IMG/VR virus record: IMGVR_UViG_2660238215_000013
Span: 1 to 6,491 of that record
Reading direction: 5' to 3' (one strand)
DNA length: 6,491 nucleotides
DNA from: a virus
Taxonomy: Duplodnaviria; Heunggongvirae; Uroviricota; Caudoviricetes
Both the position numbers and the translations under genes were made by a program. Under the pieces are notes generated by a model. That model saw only the letters and a list, made by a program, of their open reading frames with translations. It did no database searches and was not told where the DNA came from. Below, piece after piece: positions 1 to 6,491 of this stretch. Position 1 is the stretch's first letter; every line of letters starts with the position of its first letter.

Positions 1-300
1 CGGAAGGCCTTCACCATATGCCATGCTGTTTGACTGCCCCGCCAGAACCACAACAAAGTAATACTCCGGGTCTCTGGTGGCGCTGATTACTGTGCCTTCT
101 CCATCCGACGGCTTCACCACAACAGGTGTGCTCACATCACCTTCTGCGACAATCGCCTGAATAAGTGCTGCGCCATCATCCGTATACGAAGAAAACGGCC
201 CGCCGTATGGCTGCCATCCTTCACGAATTTTTTGAGCAAGCGCATCCGCAAGGTCTGACGGCGACGCCGCCCTGACCACGTCATAGTGTTTAAATGCCAT
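1..300 (-). CDS. Partial CDS (5' end in window, continues past coordinate 1): N-terminal ~100 aa of a prophage NanS-p-like protein, DUF1737-type N-terminus followed by the start of an SGNH/sialate O-acetylesterase-like domain
   Basis: Reverse complement of 1-300 is an unbroken frame from ATG (300-298) with GGAGG 4 nt upstream (305-309): MAFKHYDVVRAASPSDLADALAQKIREGWQPYGGPFSSYTDDGAALIQAIVAEGDVSTPVVVKPSDGEGTVISATRDPEYYFVVVLAGQSNSMAYGEGLP... The GQSN block is typical of SGNH-type esterases. Position directly downstream of the prophage tRNA trio matches the gene found after stxAB/tRNAs in lambdoid Stx-type phages. Absent from the ORF track because it is truncated by the window edge. Confidence 0.7.
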   Translation of the reverse strand, partial: MAFKHYDVVRAASPSDLADALAQKIREGWQPYGGPFSSYTDDGAALIQAIVAEGDVSTPVVVKPSDGEGTVISATRDPEYYFVVVLAGQSNSMAYGEGLP

Positions 301-400
301 GAATCCTCCCGGCCGGGATAATGTTGTGAGTCAGATAAGGGGCGGGCTGAAGTCCGGAAGTTACAGGACAATGACAGAAGGAAGACTACAGCCCGCAATA

Positions 401-429
401 CGAAAAAGGCCGCGCAGTTGCGCAGCCTT
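401..429 (-). terminator. Putative intrinsic terminator, minus orientation: near-perfect 11-bp GC-rich hairpin (406-429, one mismatch) followed on the minus strand by a U5 tract
   Basis: aaggccgcgcagttgcgcagcctt folds back on itself (10 of 11 pairs), then TTTTT on the minus strand (complement of aaaaa 403-407). Lies about 100 nt upstream of the esterase gene start. Confidence 0.35.
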
Positions 430-487
430 ATAAACCCTGGTTAAAATCCACACGATAAAAATGACAATGCAAGTATCTCATGCTGTT

Positions 488-512
488 GCCCGAACCTACT
501 CGGGCGTTTTTT
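488..512 (+). terminator. Putative intrinsic terminator, plus orientation: gcccga-acctac-tcgggc hairpin followed by T6
   Basis: 6-bp perfect stem 488-493/500-505, 6-nt loop, tttttt at 507-512. It is oriented against all flanking genes, so it would stop antisense transcription entering the tRNA/late region. Confidence 0.4.
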
Positions 513-830
513 GCATGTAAAAATGCTCCTGCGATGAGGAGCCTGGATATATGCCTAATCTCTGTATACAGCATGATGCCGGGTGCCTCCCGGTGAATTC
601 TGCAATGACCAGACAGAATCCGCAACTTGCCTATACAATACGCAACCAAACATCTGTCATTATGCCCCGCCGCCCAGGGGGATTCATCATGCAGGATTTT
701 TTTAACAAACGCTCAGCATGTCAGGCAACAGTCAACTACCTGAATTGTGAGGCATTTAACATTTCACTGTCCGGTATCTTTCCTGTAATAAAAAGCCCGC
801 AAAAGAGAGTCAGGGCAGATAAGTGTGGTG

Positions 831-907
831 TGGCGCGTTGTACTGGATTCGAACCAGTGACCGATTGCTTAGAAGGCAATTGCTCTGTCCGGCTGAGCTA
901 ACAACGC
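831..907 (-). tRNA. argO: tRNA-Arg, anticodon TCT (reads AGA); phage-borne rare-codon tRNA
   Basis: Minus-strand 77 nt: GCGTTGT-TA-GCTC-AGCCGGACA-GAGC-A-ATTGC-CTTCTAA-GCAAT-CGGTC-ACTGG-TTCGAAT-CCAGT-ACAACGC-G-CCA. Full cloverleaf with 7-bp acceptor stem, TTCGAAT T-loop and encoded CCA. Symbol follows the ileZ-argN-argO order of lambdoid/Stx phages, recalled not searched. Confidence 0.85.
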
Positions 908-920
908 ATGATGCTGATAA

Positions 921-997
921 TGGACCGCCATCGGGGACTTGAACCCCGCACAGCCAGCTTCGAAGGCTGGCGCTCTGTCCCGATGAGCTAATGGCGG
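921..997 (-). tRNA. argN: tRNA-Arg, anticodon TCG as read from the anticodon loop CTTCGAA
   Basis: Minus-strand 77 nt: CCGCCAT-TA-GCTC-ATCGGGACA-GAGC-G-CCAGC-CTTCGAA-GCTGG-CTGTG-CGGGG-TTCAAGT-CCCCG-ATGGCGG-T-CCA. Acceptor, anticodon and T stems are all complementary. Middle member of the trio; anticodon is as read here, symbol by position. Confidence 0.8.
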
Positions 998-1006
998 TAT
1001 GTGATA

Positions 1007-1082
1007 TGGTGGCCCTTGCTGGATTTGAACCAGCGACCTGGCGATTATGAGTCGCTCGCTCTCACCACTGAGCTAAAGGGCC
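1007..1082 (-). tRNA. ileZ: tRNA-Ile2 type (anticodon CAT, presumably lysidine-modified to read AUA); an elongator tRNA-Met cannot be fully excluded from sequence alone
   Basis: Minus-strand 76 nt: GGCCCTTTAGCTCAGTGGTGAGAGCGAGCGACTCATAATCGCCAGGTCGCTGGTTCAAATCCAGCAAGGGCCACCA. Nearly identical in layout to E. coli tRNA-Ile2 (ileX) as I recall it; anticodon loop CTCATAA. Confidence 0.85.
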
Positions 1083-1119
1083 GGGAGCAGAATAATAACG
1101 GTCCGTAATTAATTCCGCA

Positions 1120-1145
1120 ATAAAAAACCCGCTCAATGGCGGGTT
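1120..1145 (-). terminator. tR'-like intrinsic terminator of the late leader transcript (minus orientation)
   Basis: Minus strand AACCCGC-CATTGA-GCGGGTT followed by TTTTTTATT: 7-bp stem 1126-1132/1139-1145, U-tract from 1120-1125. Sits between the Q-like gene and the tRNAs, as tR' does in lambdoid phages. Confidence 0.6.
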
Positions 1146-1203
1146 CTGGTAAAGTTCATGCGTTTGGTTCGCCTCGCGATACAGCTTTGCGAAGCTTACC
1201 GGA

Positions 1204-1232
1204 ATTGAAGCAGTTTGTGGCTCATTTTGCAA
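1204..1232 (-). promoter_or_regulatory. Candidate late promoter PR' with presumed qut region: -35 TTGCAA (1227-1232), 17-bp spacer, -10 TTCAAT (1204-1209)
   Basis: Hexamers read directly on the minus strand, starting 8 nt after the Q-like stop codon (1240-1242). The predicted short transcript would end at the 1120-1145 terminator. Hexamer choice is by eye. Confidence 0.4.
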
Positions 1233-1239
1233 TGATTTT

Positions 1240-1776
1240 TTAAGCATAATCGAACGCTTCTCTCATAGGTGAATACAAAATGAACTCAGCAATACTCAAC
1301 CACTGATCAACACGGCGTCGGCATGTAATCAACGCCCACTCTGGGTACTGTTCGTTTAGTAGCTCGGCCATCCTTCTCTTACTCATCCCTCGTCCCACAT
1401 AACGCTGACTCAGGACATTAAGCAGCCCGGGATGATCCGCCAGTACTTCGCCAATAACCCTGTCGATTATTAATGCCTCTGCATCAGTACAATGCGCCAG
1501 CCAGCTCTTTTGCTTACCGTTAATCATATCCCGCAAAAAAGCCTCAAGTTCAGACTTGTTCAGACCTGCTTTTTTCATCCTCCGGAGCGCCTCGTTAATT
1601 GCCGTTTTTGTCAGCTTTTTAGAGGCCAACAACTGGTTGAACATATTCCCCGTCTTACCGCCGCCAATATACGACCAGCGCCCCCACATGCGCAGTTTTC
1701 CCTGAATCCAGACACTTTCCAGCGTGGTGAGACGAAGGTGCTCTCCGCTTTTTCCTGTGTTCGTTGGGTAAATCAT
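1240..1776 (-). CDS. Putative late-gene antiterminator Q (178 aa). Function assigned mainly by synteny (last gene before PR'/tR'/tRNAs, after ybcO-like gene), not by a verified family match
   Basis: ORF-track frame 1240..1896 trimmed to the ATG at 1776, which overlaps the upstream stop as ATGA (ATG 1776-1774, TGA 1775-1773). Product MIYPTNTGKSGEHLRLTTLESVWIQGKLRMWGRW...SPMREAFDYA. The 40 codons upstream of this ATG overlap the ybcO-like gene in another frame. Confidence 0.6.
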   Translation of the reverse strand: MIYPTNTGKSGEHLRLTTLESVWIQGKLRMWGRWSYIGGGKTGNMFNQLLASKKLTKTAINEALRRMKKAGLNKSELEAFLRDMINGKQKSWLAHCTDAEALIIDRVIGEVLADHPGLLNVLSQRYVGRGMSKRRMAELLNEQYPEWALITCRRRVDQWLSIAEFILYSPMREAFDYA

Positions 1777-2063
1777 AAATAACCGTCCTTTCTCCAGATC
1801 TCTTGTGTGCGAAAAACACCTTCTGCATGCATCAGGCGCAATTCTTCTTTGGTGTAATCGCTGGTTTTTACTCTCCCGTCGATTAAATCGTGGCATGAGT
1901 TACAGGCAATCGCCGCCTGCATATCGTGTGGTTTTGTCGCTGTTCCGCACGTCCCCGCCAGCCTGTAATGCGCCAGCACAGAAGTTTCGGGATTGTGATT
2001 GCAGTAGCCAGGAATTCTGACTGTGCACATCTGCCCCCGCGCCGCTTTACGTAAATCCACCAT
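1773..2063 (-). CDS. ybcO: YbcO-like DUF1364 protein (96 aa), a Cys/His-rich nin-region protein
   Basis: MVDLRKAARGQMCTVRIPGYCNHNPETSVLAHYRLAGTCGTATKPHDMQAAIACNSCHDLIDGR... matches the remembered DLP12 YbcO pattern (MADLRKAARG..C.VRIPG.CN.NPETSVLAH.RL.G.CGT.TKP.D..A.IAC..CHD.ID.R). Start ATG 2063-2061 overlaps the upstream stop as TAATG. Confidence 0.85.
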   Translation of the reverse strand: MVDLRKAARGQMCTVRIPGYCNHNPETSVLAHYRLAGTCGTATKPHDMQAAIACNSCHDLIDGRVKTSDYTKEELRLMHAEGVFRTQEIWRKDGYL

Positions 2064-2662
2064 TACGCAAACTCCAGTAACTGCGCGGCCACATTTTCGA
2101 CTTCCTCCGGAGAGGAAAATTTACGGAACAGGATCCAGTTCCACAGCACATTCAGTACAGATTTATAAACCTGCTGAAACTCGGTTTCGTCCATGTTCGC
2201 AAATGCGATAGATTTTGCCCTGCGCCCACGACTACCGTCCGGATAAAAATGTTCGGTGTAAAATCCGGCCTGAATGGTTACCCATTCGCGAAAAGCGTCA
2301 AAGGACTTGAGTAAGGCCGTATCCCGGGTTCTGCAAGTCGTAACGGTGTTAAGGTATTGCTCTGCGGCATCACTCAGGGCTGGCGTATGTTCCCGACCTA
2401 CTGATTCGCACAGGAAATCAACGAAACCGGACACCAGTTCTCGTTCGCGAGGCGTGATCGCCCCACCGTTCGGAGTCCAGTAATCGAATCCCAGTTGCAG
2501 GAGTTTGAAAAAACGCTTGTGGAACGCGTAGTTACGCACTCGCTTAAAGTCCGCGTGTATCCACTCACCTATTTTGATTTGATGCAAAAAATCGCAACTC
2601 TCCGGCGTCGCCGGGAGAAGTAATCCGGAAGAGGTTTGTTTGACCAGTTGTATATGCGCCAT
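2063..2662 (-). CDS. Conserved lambdoid nin-region protein, probably DUF1367 family (199 aa)
   Basis: ORF-track frame 2063..2674 begins at a TTG; the first ATG (2662-2660) has GGAG 6 nt upstream. Product MAHIQLVKQTSSGLLLPATPESCDFLHQIKIGEWIHADFKRVRNYAFHKRFFKLLQLGFDYWTP... Family assignment is from memory of prophage nin-region proteins and is unverified. Confidence 0.65.
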   Translation of the reverse strand: MAHIQLVKQTSSGLLLPATPESCDFLHQIKIGEWIHADFKRVRNYAFHKRFFKLLQLGFDYWTPNGGAITPRERELVSGFVDFLCESVGREHTPALSDAAEQYLNTVTTCRTRDTALLKSFDAFREWVTIQAGFYTEHFYPDGSRGRRAKSIAFANMDETEFQQVYKSVLNVLWNWILFRKFSSPEEVENVAAQLLEFA

Positions 2663-2721
2663 TGCTGTCTCCAATGGCGCTGTAGGTTGCCAGTTGTTCA
2701 GGCTGGCTTACGAATTATAAC

Positions 2722-2895
2722 TCATTCCCGAATCACCTTGAAACCGAGCCTTTCAAGATATTCAATGAATGCCTCGATAGATAAAATTACATGATTATCA
2801 GGGATTAACGTTGCGTAGATAACTTCCCCATTCTCAACGCGCACAGCATAGAGGCCATTTTCACTAAAAATTTCACGCAATTCTTCGATTTTCAT
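2722..2895 (-). CDS. Small acidic hypothetical protein (57 aa), not in the ORF track
   Basis: Hand translation: MKIEELREIFSENGLYAVRVENGEVIYATLIPDNHVILSIEAFIEYLERLGFKVIRE, stop TGA 2724-2722. SD-like GGAAGGA 6 nt upstream of the ATG. Lies in the AT-rich patch between the A-B-C terminator and the DUF1367-like gene. Confidence 0.5.
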   Translation of the reverse strand: MKIEELREIFSENGLYAVRVENGEVIYATLIPDNHVILSIEAFIEYLERLGFKVIRE

Positions 2896-2976
2896 CAACA
2901 GAATCCTTCCAGATAAATAGCACTCCCCTGCTCGGGGTCCATCCCTCTTCTCCCTGCGCGCTACTTAAGTGCATCG

Positions 2977-3004
2977 ATTCTAGTCAGGCATACCCGCTTA
3001 TCAA
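2977..3004 (-). promoter_or_regulatory. Candidate sigma70 promoter: -35 TTGATA (2999-3004), 16-bp spacer, -10 TAGAAT (2977-2982)
   Basis: Hexamers read on the minus strand about 80 nt upstream of the 57-aa ORF and just downstream of the A-B-C terminator. Could give lysogen expression of the 57-aa ORF independent of phage antitermination. Confidence 0.35.
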
Positions 3005-3057
3005 CAAACGAAGGTCGGTTTAGTGGAGGAATCGGCTAAAACTTGATCTGTTAAAGT

Positions 3058-3083
3058 AAAAAACCCGCCGAAGCGGGTTTTTT
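3058..3083 (-). terminator. Strong bidirectional intrinsic terminator closing the A-B-C operon
   Basis: aaaaaacccgccgaagcgggtttttt: 6-bp GC stem (3063-3068/3073-3078), loop UUCG on the minus-strand RNA, flanked by A6 and T6. Starts 6 nt after the stop of gene C (3089-3091). Confidence 0.75.
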
Positions 3084-3088
3084 GTATA

Positions 3089-3481
3089 TTACATACTCTC
3101 AATGTCATTTTTTAGTGAGTGCTTGTGTAACTCCATGGAGTAATCAACATCACGAAGAGTTTTTTCAATCTGCTTGCTTCTCAGGGTGGCAAGCGCATTA
3201 TCAATTGACACTTTTTCTTCATCTGAAGCATCAGCTCTCATTTTCGTAAGAGTCTTACGAGCCCTTGCCACATCCACCTTGAAACGTACGTCCTCTATGC
3301 TAGGTACGTTAACAAACGTAAGAAGTAGCAAAAAGAAGTGAGCAATAACAACAGCAACCCCAGGGAGAAATGCGTTGATATCAGCAGGTAACCCAATATA
3401 TGCGCTAGCCTTGACCAATAGGTAATTTGCCACCGGTGTGCACCACGCTTGGCTTGCAACATACTTAGATTGTTGAATCAT
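3089..3481 (-). CDS. Gene C of the candidate cassette: 130-aa predicted membrane protein, one clear TM segment (FLPGVAVVIAHFFLLLLTFVNV) and a charged, probably helical C-terminal tail. No family recognised
   Basis: ORF track 3089..3481. ATG 3481-3479 overlaps the stop of gene B as ATGA, with GAGG 6 nt upstream. Low GC like A and B. Confidence 0.7.
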   Translation of the reverse strand: MIQQSKYVASQAWCTPVANYLLVKASAYIGLPADINAFLPGVAVVIAHFFLLLLTFVNVPSIEDVRFKVDVARARKTLTKMRADASDEEKVSIDNALATLRSKQIEKTLRDVDYSMELHKHSLKNDIESM

Positions 3482-3717
3482 GAAGTGCCTCGCGTTAAAT
3501 CACGCTGAACCTCACTCAACGTGGACGCGAGCTCACGTGCATCCTTTGCATCCAACTGAACTTCGCAATAATGCCTAACTCCACATCGATCTATATAAGT
3601 AAATTTGAGTGTCTTACTTGGTTTAAGCCAAACCAAAAAATGATATACAGCAAAACGAGCCAACATAAAGGCGGCAACAAAAACCGTAATCATCAACATG
3701 ACACTTAAATAAGGCAT
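3478..3717 (-). CDS. Gene B of the candidate cassette: 79-aa small membrane protein, N-terminal TM helix (residues ~3-30) then a ~50-aa soluble tail with a Cys pair (DRCGVRHYC). No family recognised
   Basis: ORF track 3478..3717. Start is 8 nt after the stop of gene A (TAG 3728-3726) with AGGT 6 nt upstream. Stop overlaps the start of C. Confidence 0.7.
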   Translation of the reverse strand: MPYLSVMLMITVFVAAFMLARFAVYHFLVWLKPSKTLKFTYIDRCGVRHYCEVQLDAKDARELASTLSEVQRDLTRGTS

Positions 3718-3725
3718 ATTATTAC

Positions 3726-4595
3726 CTATACGATTCGACGTTCAGCTGCGGCGCGATGCCGTACAACCTGCGTGATAATGTATGCTGGATTCCCCAATAC
3801 ACCATTAGTTTCTTTGACTCTTTTTGTCACATTCACTACAAAAAGATCATCTTTACTGAATGACGCTTCGTTTAAATTTACTCGCTCAAGAAAACCAGCA
3901 TCCGCCATCTTAACCTTTACATCCTCGCCGTCTGGCAATACCATCCTCCAATCTGTATCGGAAGTAAAGCTCAGCTTAGAAAACTTGACGTTTAAGGTCA
4001 ATGAGTCTTCATGTGTATGTTGTACAACCGTATTATTCACTTTTTTAAAAGAAACAGATTGCTCTTGCGAAATAGAGACAATCTCCTCCCCACTTGAGTT
4101 TTTTACTCTAAACGACGAGTTTTTTTCAGTTTGCAGAGGAGTGTGTACCAATTTACTCATTTCATTGCGGATCGTAGAGTTTGTAACGAGCTTTTGTACG
4201 TCATTTGAACACTCAAATCGCTCATTATCAACAACAAAAGTCGCTCGGTTATTGGCTTCATCTATAACAACCTCATGTGGCTTTCGCCCTCGCAACCATT
4301 CTACAACCCCAACCAAACTCCCAGCACTTGCGCCGGTGGCAACAGAAAGCCCCAAGAGTTGCAAAGTAGATAAACTACCCAAAACAGAGACAAGAACAGT
4401 AAAAGATCCTTCCTGAATTGCCTTAATACTAACCCTAGTTGTTGCAGTCTCACCGTGGATAATTTTCTCTGCATTATCAATCAAATTACTTAATGAAGAC
4501 AGAGCATCACCAAGCATTTTAGCATCGATCTCATTATTCGCATATGCATCCCCAGCATATGCAATCTCAAGCTCTGTTACCTGTTGGTCGGTCAT
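3726..4595 (-). CDS. Gene A of the candidate cassette: ~289-aa protein with soluble N-terminal ~60 aa, a ~35-residue hydrophobic segment (FTVLVSVLGSLSTLQLLGLSVATGASAGSLVGVV; one long TM or a TM hairpin), and a ~190-aa C-terminal domain. No family recognised
   Basis: ORF track gives 3726..4613. The ATG at 4595-4593 has GGAG 9 nt upstream, whereas the ATG at 4613 has only A/T upstream, so 4595 is preferred (4613 remains possible). 870-nt frame in low-GC DNA, coupled to B and C downstream. Confidence 0.75.
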   Translation of the reverse strand: MTDQQVTELEIAYAGDAYANNEIDAKMLGDALSSLSNLIDNAEKIIHGETATTRVSIKAIQEGSFTVLVSVLGSLSTLQLLGLSVATGASAGSLVGVVEWLRGRKPHEVVIDEANNRATFVVDNERFECSNDVQKLVTNSTIRNEMSKLVHTPLQTEKNSSFRVKNSSGEEIVSISQEQSVSFKKVNNTVVQHTHEDSLTLNVKFSKLSFTSDTDWRMVLPDGEDVKVKMADAGFLERVNLNEASFSKDDLFVVNVTKRVKETNGVLGNPAYIITQVVRHRAAAERRIV

Positions 4596-4714
4596 GAAGT
4601 TCAACTCCACCATAAAAAATATGCAAAATAATTAACAGTATTTTCACTTTATGGCGGGTGCGTTGAGGATGCCTGACACATCAGAGGTGGCGGGGGTTTA
4701 CCCCGCCTGGTCTC

Positions 4715-4870
4715 TTACTCCTCAGGTTCGTAAGCTGTGAAGACAGCGACCTCCGTCTGGCCGGTTCGGATTCGTACCTCGCAGAGGTCTTTCCTCGTTA
4801 CCAGTGCCGTCACTATGACGGTTAAACAGATGACGATCAGGGCGATTAACATCGCCTTTTGCTGCTTCAT
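4715..4870 (-). CDS. hokD: Hok-family type I toxin (51 aa), HokD/RelF-like
   Basis: MKQQKAMLIALIVICLTVIVTALVTRKDLCEVRIRTGQTEVAVFTAYEPEE: single TM plus the conserved Hok C-terminal motif. Matches my recollection of K-12 Qin HokD. AAGGAG 9 nt upstream of the ATG at 4870. The ORF-track entry 4715..4927 is the same frame extended 19 codons upstream. Confidence 0.85.
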   Translation of the reverse strand: MKQQKAMLIALIVICLTVIVTALVTRKDLCEVRIRTGQTEVAVFTAYEPEE

Positions 4871-4991
4871 AGCCTGCTTCTCCTTGCCTTTCGGCGCGTA
4901 AGAGGCTAACCTACATGTGCAAGTCATAGATATGGCCTCAGATTAATGTTAAGCGTCTTGCCGGACGCGTAATGTTAACTGGGGCTTTTCT

Positions 4992-5027
4992 CTATCTGCC
5001 GTTGGTGTTCATGCCCGAGGCAGATAG
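4992..5027. repeat. 9-bp inverted repeat (ctatctgcc ... ggcagatag) with 18-nt spacer in the hokD upstream leader region
   Basis: 4992-5000 is the exact reverse complement of 5019-5027. Could be a structured RNA element of a hok/sok-type leader. Confidence 0.6.
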
Positions 5028-5085
5028 CCTCAAGCACCCGCAGCAATTCTACTTAACTCTCGCTTTACCGCAAACCGTTTTTACC

Positions 5086-5107
5086 CGATATGGGAATTCC
5101 CATATCG
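5086..5107. repeat. Perfect 22-bp palindrome CGATATGGGAATTCCCATATCG centred on GAATTC
   Basis: Reverse complement equals itself. Lies 9 nt downstream of the 34-aa peptide stop and ~215 nt upstream of the hokD start. Candidate dimeric-regulator operator or a 9-bp-stem RNA hairpin in the hok leader. Confidence 0.9.
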
Positions 5108-5115
5108 TAATGAAT

Positions 5116-5220
5116 TCAGTTCCCTAGTCGATCCATCAAAAACACAACCAGGCAGTAAACGCCCACAACAGCAATAACAGCCAGCGCACCTTCCATTGCC
5201 AGTGAAATATCATCCGACAT
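5116..5220 (-). CDS. Small hydrophobic peptide ORF (34 aa), predicted single-TM peptide; not in the ORF track
   Basis: Hand translation: MSDDISLAMEGALAVIAVVGVYCLVVFLMDRLGN, stop TGA 5118-5116. AGGAGGG immediately upstream of the ATG (5220-5218). Confidence 0.45.
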   Translation of the reverse strand: MSDDISLAMEGALAVIAVVGVYCLVVFLMDRLGN

Positions 5221-5255
5221 ATTCCCTCCTTTGGTGTTAATCCCGGCGAACGTTT

Positions 5256-5339
5256 TTACCCCCACCGACAAATAACATATACTAAAAAAGCGATAGCCAT
5301 AGCAACGCCTGTAATTGCAAATGCTTCAGGCCAGTTCAT
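5256..5339 (-). CDS. Small hydrophobic peptide ORF (27 aa), predicted single-TM peptide; not in the ORF track
   Basis: Hand translation: MNWPEAFAITGVAMAIAFLVYVICRWG, stop TAA 5258-5256. ATG 5339-5337 overlaps the stop of the DUF551 gene as ATGA, with AGGAGG 7 nt upstream. Confidence 0.45.
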   Translation of the reverse strand: MNWPEAFAITGVAMAIAFLVYVICRWG

Positions 5340-5920
5340 TGGCGCACCTCCTGCGGCGGTTCTGGTAGCGGCATCCAGTCGGTTACATTGCGGCTCTGTG
5401 TTTCGAAAAATTCATCACCATCACGGACTACATCAAAAAACTCACCGTCTCGATATTGCGCATAAAGAACGAATGCGCCATCACATAAAATAATTACGTG
5501 CTGACAGTCATCCGGCATTCGCTCACTACAGCTTATCCAACCATCCAGAGTTACCGGATAGTTGGTTGACGTTTCCGAGATTTCCCGAAAATTATTGGTT
5601 GACGAACCCTTATTTTCCCGAAAGTTTCCAGCCTGAAGCATGGCGGCGCTGTCTGGCGGGGCAGCATATAGCGGCACGTATATTTCCGGTTCCTTATCAG
5701 CACCGGGTTGCTCTTCCAGTGAGAATGTCTTTCCGGTAAATCGATTCATATAAAGCACGGGCTCTGCTTCCAGCGAAGCCTGAGCAACAAGGGCCAGTGC
5801 TAAATCCAACTCAATTGCCTCGAGAGAATTTTTGAATGCTGTCTGTTTTACTGCAAATTTCATCGCCTTTACATTTTCACTAACATGACTGATTAACTGC
5901 TCTTTTGTAAAAGTGGTCAT
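5336..5920 (-). CDS. Prophage protein with C-terminal DUF551-like domain (194 aa)
   Basis: ORF-track frame 5336..5980 starts at a GTG; the internal ATG at 5920-5918 has AAGGAG 6 nt upstream. C-terminus ...DGWISCSERMPDDCQHVIILCDGAFVLYAQYRDGEFFDV...VTDWMPLPEPP fits the DUF551 pattern as I remember it. Confidence 0.7.
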   Translation of the reverse strand: MTTFTKEQLISHVSENVKAMKFAVKQTAFKNSLEAIELDLALALVAQASLEAEPVLYMNRFTGKTFSLEEQPGADKEPEIYVPLYAAPPDSAAMLQAGNFRENKGSSTNNFREISETSTNYPVTLDGWISCSERMPDDCQHVIILCDGAFVLYAQYRDGEFFDVVRDGDEFFETQSRNVTDWMPLPEPPQEVRQ

Positions 5921-5976
5921 CTCATTCTCCTTTGATGCGAATGCCAGCGACAATTGAAGCCTGATAGCTAATTCAC

Positions 5977-6372
5977 TCACAGTACCGCCTCCTGAAAATT
6001 GCCCTGATAGAACGCCAGTACACGCAGCATAACTTCACTCTTCCGGCACTCGCCACAGATTATGTTCTGTTGTCTGTCGTAGCGGCGTATTTCTCCGTCT
6101 GGTAACTTTCGAATCAATGTCTGGTCGGTTGTTTTCTCCGCTGCCTTACGCCATACGCGATACACCTGTTCTGATGTAAAAACACCGTATTTACCGGGCA
6201 TGTATAAATCGCCACAAGCCAGTACATCCACAAGGCAACGTCTGACTGAATGCCAGCCTGCTCCCGTCGCTCTCTCCAGTTGTGATATCGTCATGCGTTC
6301 ATTTTTGCGTACCAGCCCGATAATTCGGGCCTTCAGTTCTTCACGCTGTTCGTGTGTAAAAGGTTTCGCCAT
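5977..6372 (-). CDS. Hypothetical prophage early-region protein (131 aa) with a probable helix-turn-helix segment (RMTISQLERATGAGWHSVRRCLVDV)
   Basis: ORF-track frame 5977..6387 trimmed to the ATG at 6372-6370, which has GGAGG 5 nt upstream. The stop overlaps the GTG of the next frame (GTGA). Confidence 0.65.
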   Translation of the reverse strand: MAKPFTHEQREELKARIIGLVRKNERMTISQLERATGAGWHSVRRCLVDVLACGDLYMPGKYGVFTSEQVYRVWRKAAEKTTDQTLIRKLPDGEIRRYDRQQNIICGECRKSEVMLRVLAFYQGNFQEAVL

Positions 6373-6387
6373 AAGCGCCTCCGGCAA

Positions 6388-6491
6388 TCACTTTTCCGAC
6401 ACAATACGACCGGATGAATCGACAATCTGCCGAACAATATCCCGGTGCTTGTTCAGCTCCCGCAGCGCGGCGCAGACTCGCTCCCACTTCT
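6388..6491 (-). CDS. Partial CDS, C-terminal 34 codons of a gene that begins beyond the window end
   Basis: Open minus-strand frame from the window edge to TGA 6390-6388: ...KWERVCAALRELNKHRDIVRQIVDSSGRIVSEK. The stop lies within the SD region of the downstream HTH gene (operon-like spacing). Too short to assign a function. Confidence 0.4.
   Translation of the reverse strand, partial: KWERVCAALRELNKHRDIVRQIVDSSGRIVSEK

Follow-up and report, generated by a model that had tools for sequence, protein, structure and literature searches.

The DNA analyzed here (the window; 6,491 nt, positions 1 to 6,491 of the IMG/VR virus record IMGVR_UViG_2660238215_000013) comprises the early-right (nin/Q) region of a lambdoid, Stx-phage-like E. 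coli prophage, in which all genes are on the minus strand. Next to the toxin gene hokD it carries a mobile cassette of three genes, termed A, B and C in order of transcription; protein A is homologous to gp29, a validated defence protein of the mycobacteriophage MichelleMyBell. The cassette is part of an AT-rich block, and its interest rests, beyond AT-richness, on its identity and on its base-exact placement in the hok mRNA. The features are listed in Table 1.

Table 1. Location of the cassette, the hok elements and the neighbouring genes in the window (ORF, open reading frame; TM, transmembrane; CDS, coding sequence)
Feature	Position	Strand	Remarks
Whole AT-rich replaced block	2686..4647	-	blastn against CB9615, GC content, maximum-likelihood segmentation
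Mobile A-B-C cassette (58-nt leader and three genes)	3082..4653	-	junction alignments
Gene A leader, AT-rich	4596..4653	-	Shine-Dalgarno sequence GGTGGAG 8 nt before the ATG at 4595
Gene A, 289 aa	3726..4595	-	gp29 homologue; PADLOC PDC-S42, NCBIfam LAPAL_fam, phrog_3243
Gene B, 79 aa	3478..3717	-	phrog_27630 at 5.8e-13; predicted N-terminal TM helix and small soluble domain
Gene C, 130 aa	3089..3481	-	phrog_26468 at 2.1e-9; two hydrophobic segments and charged coiled-coil tail
Rho-independent terminator hairpin, AAAAAACCCGCTTCGGCGGGTTTTTT	3058..3083	-	5 nt past the C stop codon
hok mRNA 5' end / tac element, GCGGGUGCUUGAGG	5028..5041	-	TAGAAT -10-like hexamer just before
hok mRNA fbi element, CCUCAACGCACCCGC	4654..4668	-	pattern search; complementary to tac; last base is the cassette junction
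sok-region RNA (Rfam RF01794)	4865-5039		108 bits
hokD toxin CDS, 51 aa	4715..4870	-	Pfam HOK_GEF 2.9e-23; upstream neighbour of the cassette
mok/hokD	4927-4715	-	Hok CDS at 4870-4715
Promoter-like site TTGATA-16-TAGAAT	2977..3004	-	scan, 10/12 consensus matches; upstream of the 58-aa ORF
58-aa ORF (phrog_340)	2722..2898	-	PHROG 1.4e-18, match over whole length; in the variable segment, outside the cassette
DUF977 gene	6387-5977	-	first in transcription order
DUF551 gene	5980-5336	-	after DUF977
51-aa ORF		-	between DUF551 and mok/hokD in transcription order
DUF1367 gene (NinB/Orf-like PHROG match)	2674-2063	-	start codon at 2674
YbcO gene	2063-1773	-	after DUF1367
DUF1133 Q-type antiterminator	about 1794-1240	-	after YbcO
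Three tRNAs	1082-831	-	after Q

An earlier note on this DNA had described an AT-rich island at 2700-4650, which begins right after the hokD 3' hairpin and ends near the start of the DUF1367 gene. The island was confirmed: GC (guanine plus cytosine) content is 0.413 over 2700-4650, compared with 0.502 over 1-2699 and 0.490 over 4651-6491, and a maximum-likelihood two-boundary segmentation of the whole window, blind to the earlier finding, selected the segment 2711-4650 (GC 0.412 inside and 0.497 outside) with a log-likelihood gain of 19.7 nats, higher than in all 100 shuffles of 25-nt blocks (mean 5.1, maximum 11.6). The hand counts given in the note were exact (0.367 for 3781-3840, 0.317 for 4021-4080 and 0.550 for 2401-2460), and both of its edges were recovered; the right edge is 29 nt past the hairpin after the hok stop codon, at the end of the fbi element (4654), and the left edge is 11 nt upstream of the DUF1367 start codon, homology to the isogenic backbone resuming at 2685. 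Furthermore, GC at third codon positions is 0.36-0.40 for A, B, C and a 58-aa ORF versus 0.44-0.66 for the flanking genes, and the Karlin dinucleotide distance is 83 between cassette and flanks versus 35 between left and right flank. The GC drop of approximately 9 points is moderate in amplitude; its edges are well defined, and for these the word "sharp" is fair.

The mobile cassette (GC 0.408) is also AT-rich relative to other backbones: in 16 of the 17 host contexts examined, its GC content is 4-15 points (mostly 7-12) under the mean of its flanks, for example in Orbaceae loci (0.30-0.32 for the cassette, 0.34-0.40 for the flanks); the lone exception (L004; comparator loci are denoted by L numbers) has a right flank of only 95 bp. 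The 'empty' allele of the E. coli O55:H7 CB9615 prophage is AT-rich as well (GC 0.363). Low GC is thus a property of hotspot and module, and provides no clean, usable donor signature. The compositional island by itself is ordinary; AT-rich morons are abundant in lambdoid prophages.

The block was delimited by comparison with related prophages, as had been suggested with the earlier note, and base-level junctions were found. The CB9615 prophage (L041) matches window positions 1-2685 at 95.9% and 4648-6491 at 99.3% identity (blastn), hence the replaced block is 2686-4647, i.e. nearly the coordinates of the note, with 1,962 bp in the window versus 466 bp in isogenic CB9615. The CB9615 filler (L041 3187-3652) contains an unrelated 70-aa ORF, and the hotspot is AT-rich whatever its content. 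Two stretches of a common empty site (O55:H7 DEC5B) align to the window, at 2828-2989 and at 4654-5122, and 61 bp separate them there; prophages with Doc cargo match 2828-3081 (or 1336-2983), with homology back at 4654. The junctions against the Doc-cargo locus L003 are 3081/3082 and 4653/4654, and the right junction is identical against L002, L043 and L128. Since the comparator junctions split the block at these positions, the mobile unit is 3082-4653 (1,572 bp), and the island is a composite of this cassette and a separate variable segment (2686-3081). The variable segment contains the terminator, a promoter-like site that is conserved in alignments with Doc-cargo and empty-site loci, and the 58-aa ORF; one part of it (2828-2989) was found in thousands of E. 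coli genomes. The 58-aa ORF is chimeric, in that residues 1-27 match a widespread 86-aa protein of the same position and the remainder differs, and it is a pseudogene fragment in the RefSeq (PGAP) annotation.

In other E. coli prophages, the terminator comes immediately after hok, or the site is occupied by a Doc-family toxin pair. The hok 3' region of all comparators reads …CCUCAACGCACCCGC-ACUUAA-CCCGCUUCGGCGGGUUUUU, closing in the Rho-independent terminator hairpin, and homology of the window to every comparator ends at 4654, the final fbi base. The hairpin (AAAAAACCCGCUUCGGCGGGUUUUUU; fold -16.4 kcal/mol, z = -3.25) is present as a single copy in the window, after C, and directly after hok at the empty sites. 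Because homology stops at 4654 and the sole hairpin follows C, the cassette is located between the hok fbi element and the hok terminator; it starts with the first base after fbi and ends just before the hairpin. One Doc-cargo locus has two hairpin copies, one after hok and one after doc. The Doc-family toxin and its 59-aa partner are found in the same hotspot of other E. coli (L003 3255-4103; L043 4103-5074), inserted after the hok terminator and trailed by a second copy of the same hairpin, which therefore acts as a repeated cassette boundary.

The hok/sok locus of the window is intact with respect to the HOK_GEF toxin (100% identical to the RefSeq HokD of loci L002 and L003), the sok-region RNA and the tac/fbi elements; its terminator is present, displaced to 3083-3058. 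In the hokD locus (4654-5041) tac and fbi are thus retained, and the terminator is found about 1.57 kb away, past three translated genes. A consensus scan of the interval from hok to gene A found neither a terminator nor a strong promoter, and inspection of the leader 4596-4653 by eye gave no more than a weak sigma-70-like match (GTGAAA-18-CATATT). The cassette is therefore probably transcribed as a hok 3' extension and/or by read-through of the early operon, and these signals favour, on balance, a coupling to hok transcription. The insertion has moved the hok terminator beyond gene C, and the operon would be transcribed from the hok promoter, or by early-operon read-through, and end at the relocated hok terminator. 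A stronger version, i.e. that A-B-C are wired into hok/sok and expressed solely from a 3'-extended form of the long-lived hok mRNA, and jointly that the triad is a distinct branch of the gp29 family in Gram-negative bacteria, with its own membrane partners, is tentative and, as a whole, doubtful. If true, tac/fbi fold-back and processing would gate an abortive-infection module, or the extension would shift the timing of Hok synthesis, and hok/sok plus A-B-C would constitute a composite, two-layer suicide device.

Gene C overlaps the stop codon of B with its start (ATGA). By hydropathy, B and C are predicted to be small membrane proteins, and the soluble domain of B is of the beta-hairpin type with a phi-x-phi-x-phi-x-D-x-x-G motif. 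Gene B is conserved in more than 30 loci, yet it is unannotated in RefSeq (PGAP) genomes with an identical cassette (L001, L042). No Pfam match was obtained for A, B, C or the 58-aa ORF. The AlphaFold model of A (predicted local distance difference test score, pLDDT, 78) comprises, in this order, an N-terminal strand and a long helix, a hydrophobic segment, a mixed middle domain and a C-terminal barrel, which is modelled as five-stranded and OB-like. A Gly/Ala-rich hydrophobic stretch (residues 65-101) is poorly defined in the model. This stretch was rejected as a clean divider of triad-type and solitary family members, as the number of charged residues is graded (1-4 in triads versus a median of 5 in solitary members), and given this trend A is not claimed to be an integral membrane protein. 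A sequence-profile search against the PDB produced only a chance-level match to a tubulin complex, and a Foldseek search against viral models retrieved only uncharacterised proteins, one of them from a cluster-N mycobacteriophage.

Protein A is a strong, full-length member of the PADLOC family PDC-S42 (PDLC05015; 157.6 bits, E 1.2e-46, residues 13-291), and is also assigned to the NCBIfam family NF053583 (LAPAL_fam, 'LAPAL motif-containing putative phage structural protein'; 208.7 bits, cutoff 60). The position of the LAPAL motif, in the N-terminal helix, is conserved; it reads MLGDAL in the window. PDC-S42 is one of 145 untested candidates that were put forward on the grounds of a homologue embedded in a BREX, DISARM or type I restriction-modification locus (Payne et al. 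2024, preprint 10.1101/2024.01.29.577857). A search of the literature for 'PDC-S42' or 'LAPAL motif', including the supplements of the PADLOC preprint, retrieved nothing. The decisive lead to gp29 was the A-like gene of a Vibrio element, which its depositor had labelled MMB_gp29_gp30__gp29.

MichelleMyBell (KF986246; PMC4939774) encodes gp29 (310 aa) and, overlapping its end, gp30 (67 aa, two hydrophobic segments). A profile of the window branch aligned to gp29 by hhalign with a probability of 96.3% (E 1.8e-9; A 5-282 to gp29 8-296), and a profile of the LAPAL branch with 97.7% (E 1.9e-12), in both cases end to end over approximately 265 columns; gp29 also matches the same PADLOC profile, PDLC05015 (E 1.6e-16). 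On account of these full-length matches and the common profile, A, PDC-S42, LAPAL_fam and gp29 are one family, and the cassette represents, as judged from its sequence, a variant of this defence family that comes from Gram-negative bacteria and has three genes. No statement linking PDC-S42 to the validated gp29 was found in the sources consulted. A tblastn search with the Vibrio A-like protein gave no bridge to mycobacteriophages, and comparisons of B and C with gp30 by hhalign and hidden Markov models revealed no similarity (probability <1%).

An exhaustive profile search (E <= 1e-3) collected 2,852 representatives of the A family (50%-identity clusters), nearly all of 280-320 aa; a word-indexed search reached only 26 clusters. 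In the distant 'LAPAL' branch (80 viral loci sampled) there is no consistent small partner; the small downstream ORFs look spurious and were rejected as B/C-like or gp30-like partners. As partner content differs between the LAPAL branch, gp29/gp30 and A-B-C, the family occurs in solitary, two-gene and three-gene forms.

The three-gene form is conserved. In all 33 loci found with an A alignment, genes of the B and C type follow within about 10 nt after A, down to 35-42% identity in A; the B-type proteins (~80 aa) have an N-terminal transmembrane helix, and the C-type proteins (~127-132 aa; usually overlapping B) have two hydrophobic segments and a charged coiled-coil tail. A third allele group (variant 2; A 51% identical), present in 37 or 38 complete E. 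coli genomes, occupies the gap from the Q antiterminator to the holins; it is on the opposite strand and has a conserved promoter of its own, of the TTGCGT-17-CATAAT type, upstream. Relatives of A with 65-73% identity are found in the nin region of Raoultella-type lambdoid prophages, with unnamed nin genes on one side and a theta-like gene followed by NinB on the other; those with 35-42% identity belong to Mu-like prophages in Orbaceae and Gilliamella, where a holin and an SLT endolysin come directly after the module. More distant triads (A identity about 25-27%) are present on the Pseudomonas megaplasmid pR31014-IMP (308, 84 and 139 aa) and in Vibrio phage 10N.286.45.F8_PE001 (Vinavirales, tectivirus-like; 284, 83 and 161 aa), the A-like gene of the latter beside an integrase gene and after the structural block; the motif of B, with D or G at its seventh position, is common to the B-like proteins. 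Among 50,697 deposited phage genomes there was no close relative of A, and the sole distant one was that of the Vibrio element. Genes of the A/gp29 family adjoin lysis cassettes in four unrelated backbones (L127 1832-5478, MichelleMyBell; L037 8001-10371, Orbaceae Mu-like; L033 2500-4626; L015 3462-7515, variant 2), which may reflect a hotspot coincidence or a functional link.

Within E. coli the cassette is rare. At least 80% of the segment 2700-4700 is present in only four of 5,426 complete genomes, which are the same number as carry the hok-linked cassette, three with the window allele and one with a second allele. The second allele (cassette DNA 86% and A protein 89% identical) shares the junction …CGCACCCGC|CAUAAAGUGAAAAU… to the base and likewise has the hairpin behind C, on a downstream backbone that differs (92-aa gene, DUF968, RusA, Q). 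With two such diverged alleles at the same junction, the insertion is not very recent, and the shared junction is consistent with a single, old insertion event and its later spread via recombination in the flanks. The reading of the block as horizontally acquired cargo, put forward in the earlier note, is supported by the empty isogenic site, by the rarity of the cassette and by the same genes in unrelated backbones. The note had named as evidence to the contrary that the same genes be present at identical junctions in all related phage backbones; empty and Doc-cargo sites exist, so that the flanks occur without the block, and the module occurs in unrelated backbones. Hence, the block shows the deviant composition, the presence or absence between conserved flanks and the recurrence in unrelated backbones that are typical of morons; of an autonomous unit, the terminator hairpin after C was observed, and no promoter in the 58-nt leader passed the scan. 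The AT-rich block is very probably accessory DNA that was acquired horizontally and occupies a recombination hotspot, the interval from hokD to the DUF1367 gene, and the module is dispensable, mobile, and borne by prophages and plasmids.

The closest complete genomes to the window are of enterohaemorrhagic or Shiga toxin-producing (EHEC/STEC) type E. coli, the best being O157:H7 F3113 (93% window coverage, 95.9% identity); no deposited phage genome covered more than 31% of the window. The mechanical ORF of the Q-like antiterminator (1240-1896; 218 aa, ATG at 1896) overlaps YbcO by 124 nt. Its RefSeq orthologues begin approximately 100 nt further downstream (184 aa), hence the true start is probably near 1794. 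In the tRNA trio (831-1082), the gene with the CAT anticodon is predicted as tRNA-Met by ARAGORN versus tRNA-Ile in the RefSeq CB9615 orthologue. Strains F3113, UTAK-10 and 2000-3039 have no tRNA trio and an ORF6N gene after Q instead; F3113 and UTAK-10 additionally have a single tRNA-Met. Two prophage small RNAs were predicted with Rfam downstream of the trio: STnc100 (513-721, minus strand, 170 bits) and AgvB (anti-GcvB; 453-512, plus strand, 59.9 bits, slightly over the gathering score of 56).

The gp29/gp30 defence of MichelleMyBell (DefenseFinder system MMB_gp29_gp30) is reportedly based on the study of Dedrick et al. 2017. With the MichelleMyBell prophage, the plating efficiency of phage Tweety is 10^4-10^5-fold lower, and Tweety gp54 counteracts this defence (PMC8549241). 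The defence is abortive-infection-like, in that the incoming phage can adsorb and inject and only its production is blocked (PMC6426606). In PMC11856565, gp29 is described as toxic and gp30 as a putative membrane protein, with an unknown mechanism. As A is homologous to gp29 and B/C occupy the place of gp30, the most likely function of the cassette, by analogy, is a lysogen-expressed, membrane-associated defence of abortive-infection type against heterotypic phages, and we consider it reasonably probable that A-B-C is an anti-phage defence of the gp29 type. In a lysogen, the three proteins would form a membrane-associated system that answers infection by an unrelated phage, and the infection would be stopped through damage to, or arrest of, the host cell; A may be the infection sensor or the toxic effector, and B and C may be membrane partners, restraints or effectors. 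The defence function and the membrane mechanism, like the transcriptional coupling to hok, are what we infer from this homology and gene arrangement.

The toxicity of gp29 (PMC11856565) is also compatible with an addiction or toxin-antitoxin-like module, in which A is the toxin and B and/or C neutralise it, and which is selected for retention of the prophage and not for phage exclusion; the slot holds a Doc-family toxin pair elsewhere, right beside hok/sok, and B and C are translationally coupled through the ATGA overlap. We regard this as unlikely, since the mycobacterial homologue excludes phage 10^4-10^5-fold and since most distant family members are solitary, with which an obligate toxin-antitoxin pair is hard to reconcile; toxin-antitoxin and abortive-infection roles do, however, overlap and are not mutually exclusive. 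The positions of the family near lysis genes raise the question whether A-B-C serves the lytic growth of the phage itself, e.g. in the timing of lysis, in membrane remodelling or in superinfection exclusion at the envelope: the A-like gene follows lysin A, holin and gp28 in MichelleMyBell, precedes holin and SLT endolysin in the Orbaceae Mu-like prophages, precedes a GH108 endolysin in L033, and is located between Q and the holins in E. coli variant 2; furthermore, B and C are predicted small membrane proteins, like holins and antiholins, and the window cassette is co-oriented with the early nin operon. Such a role is improbable given that variant 2 runs against the direction of the late operon and is served by a conserved sigma-70-type promoter of its own, that the holin, endolysin and spanin sets next to the module are complete without it, that B and C match no holin family in Pfam or PHROG, that homologous triads are found on Pseudomonas megaplasmids with no visible phage context, and that the dispensable cassette is missing from isogenic prophages.

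The name of NF053583, which A matches so well, and the location of most A relatives on viral or prophage contigs would suit a virion structural protein, with the AT-rich block as a divergent structural or accessory allele. Gene A is, however, located in the early nin region, outside the morphogenesis operon, the gene of its homologue gp29 serves in defence, and membership of A in the structural proteins was rejected because isogenic prophages lack it, because the deposited phage genomes lack it except for the one distant Vibrio element, and because relatives are borne by megaplasmids; this reading is extremely unlikely. It is also very unlikely that the low GC merely reflects local constraints on an old backbone (an AT-rich hotspot, membrane-protein composition, or xenogeneic silencing) with no recent acquisition. 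The CB9615 filler is even more AT-rich than the cassette, almost all hosts, the Orbaceae among them, have a cassette lower in GC than its flanks, and the 86%-identical alleles at one junction speak for an insertion that is not very recent; yet the base-pair-defined presence or absence, the four of 5,426 genomes and the unrelated replicons demonstrate mobility regardless of composition, and the empty-site comparisons largely refute this explanation.

The homology connects gp29, whose role in defence is validated, to PDC-S42, which is an untested candidate in PADLOC, and to an NCBIfam family whose name is possibly wrong, and it suggests a better annotation and a testable phenotype for the approximately 2,850 representative proteins of the family. 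The comparisons also define a conserved three-gene form, A with two predicted small membrane proteins, one of them missed by RefSeq, that is spread over Enterobacterales, Orbaceae, Pseudomonas plasmids and a tectivirus-like Vibrio element. The base-precise insertion between fbi and terminator in EHEC/STEC-type prophages presents a candidate case of cargo that borrows its transcription from a type I toxin locus, and the cassette may be relevant to prophage-prophage competition in E. coli rich in Shiga-toxin phages.

Compared to known systems, the closest is gp29/gp30 of MichelleMyBell. Proteins A and gp29 are of the same size class (289 versus 310 aa), align end to end and have the motifs GSF, W-R/K, D..FL.RV and V..HR in common; both are prophage-encoded in a variable accessory slot, with a gene for a small membrane protein right after. 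However, their identity is only approximately 23%, and the host of the window is Gram-negative. The single partner of gp29 is the two-TM gp30 with no detectable similarity to B or C, whereas the window has two partners, B with one predicted TM helix and a soluble beta-hairpin domain, and C with two TM helices and a coiled coil, and in the window the module lies within the 3' part of a hok transcript. The PDC-S42 model describes a single gene, in contrast to the conserved three-gene prophage operon. Lambda RexAB, Sbash gp30/31 and CarolAnn gp43/44 confer abortive infection with proposed membrane depolarisation (PMC6426606), and have a like design, in which a prophage-encoded cytoplasmic protein of ~280-370 aa is paired with a small membrane protein of several passes. 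The resemblance is no more than an analogy: membership in a RexAB-like group was rejected, as A, B and C match no RexA, RexB or DUF4747 model in PADLOC and Pfam, where A has no match besides PDC-S42 and B and C have none.

The cassette is likewise comparable to lambdoid morons (e.g. the Doc pair at this site, or stx between Q and the lysis genes) as a discrete, AT-rich, dispensable insert that is flanked by conserved backbone genes and ends in a terminator, and lambdoid cargo hotspots similarly hold alternative cargos in the same slot, with variant 2 in the classic Q-holin slot with its own promoter. It differs from these morons in that it has no recognisable promoter of its own and is placed upstream, and not downstream, of the hok terminator, and for these reasons would not be an autonomous promoter-gene-terminator unit in the window. 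The hokD gene, the sok-region RNA and the tac/fbi elements are those of a typical hok/sok system, in which the Rho-independent terminator normally follows about 6 nt after fbi, whereas in the window it is displaced by approximately 1.57 kb, past the three genes of the cassette.

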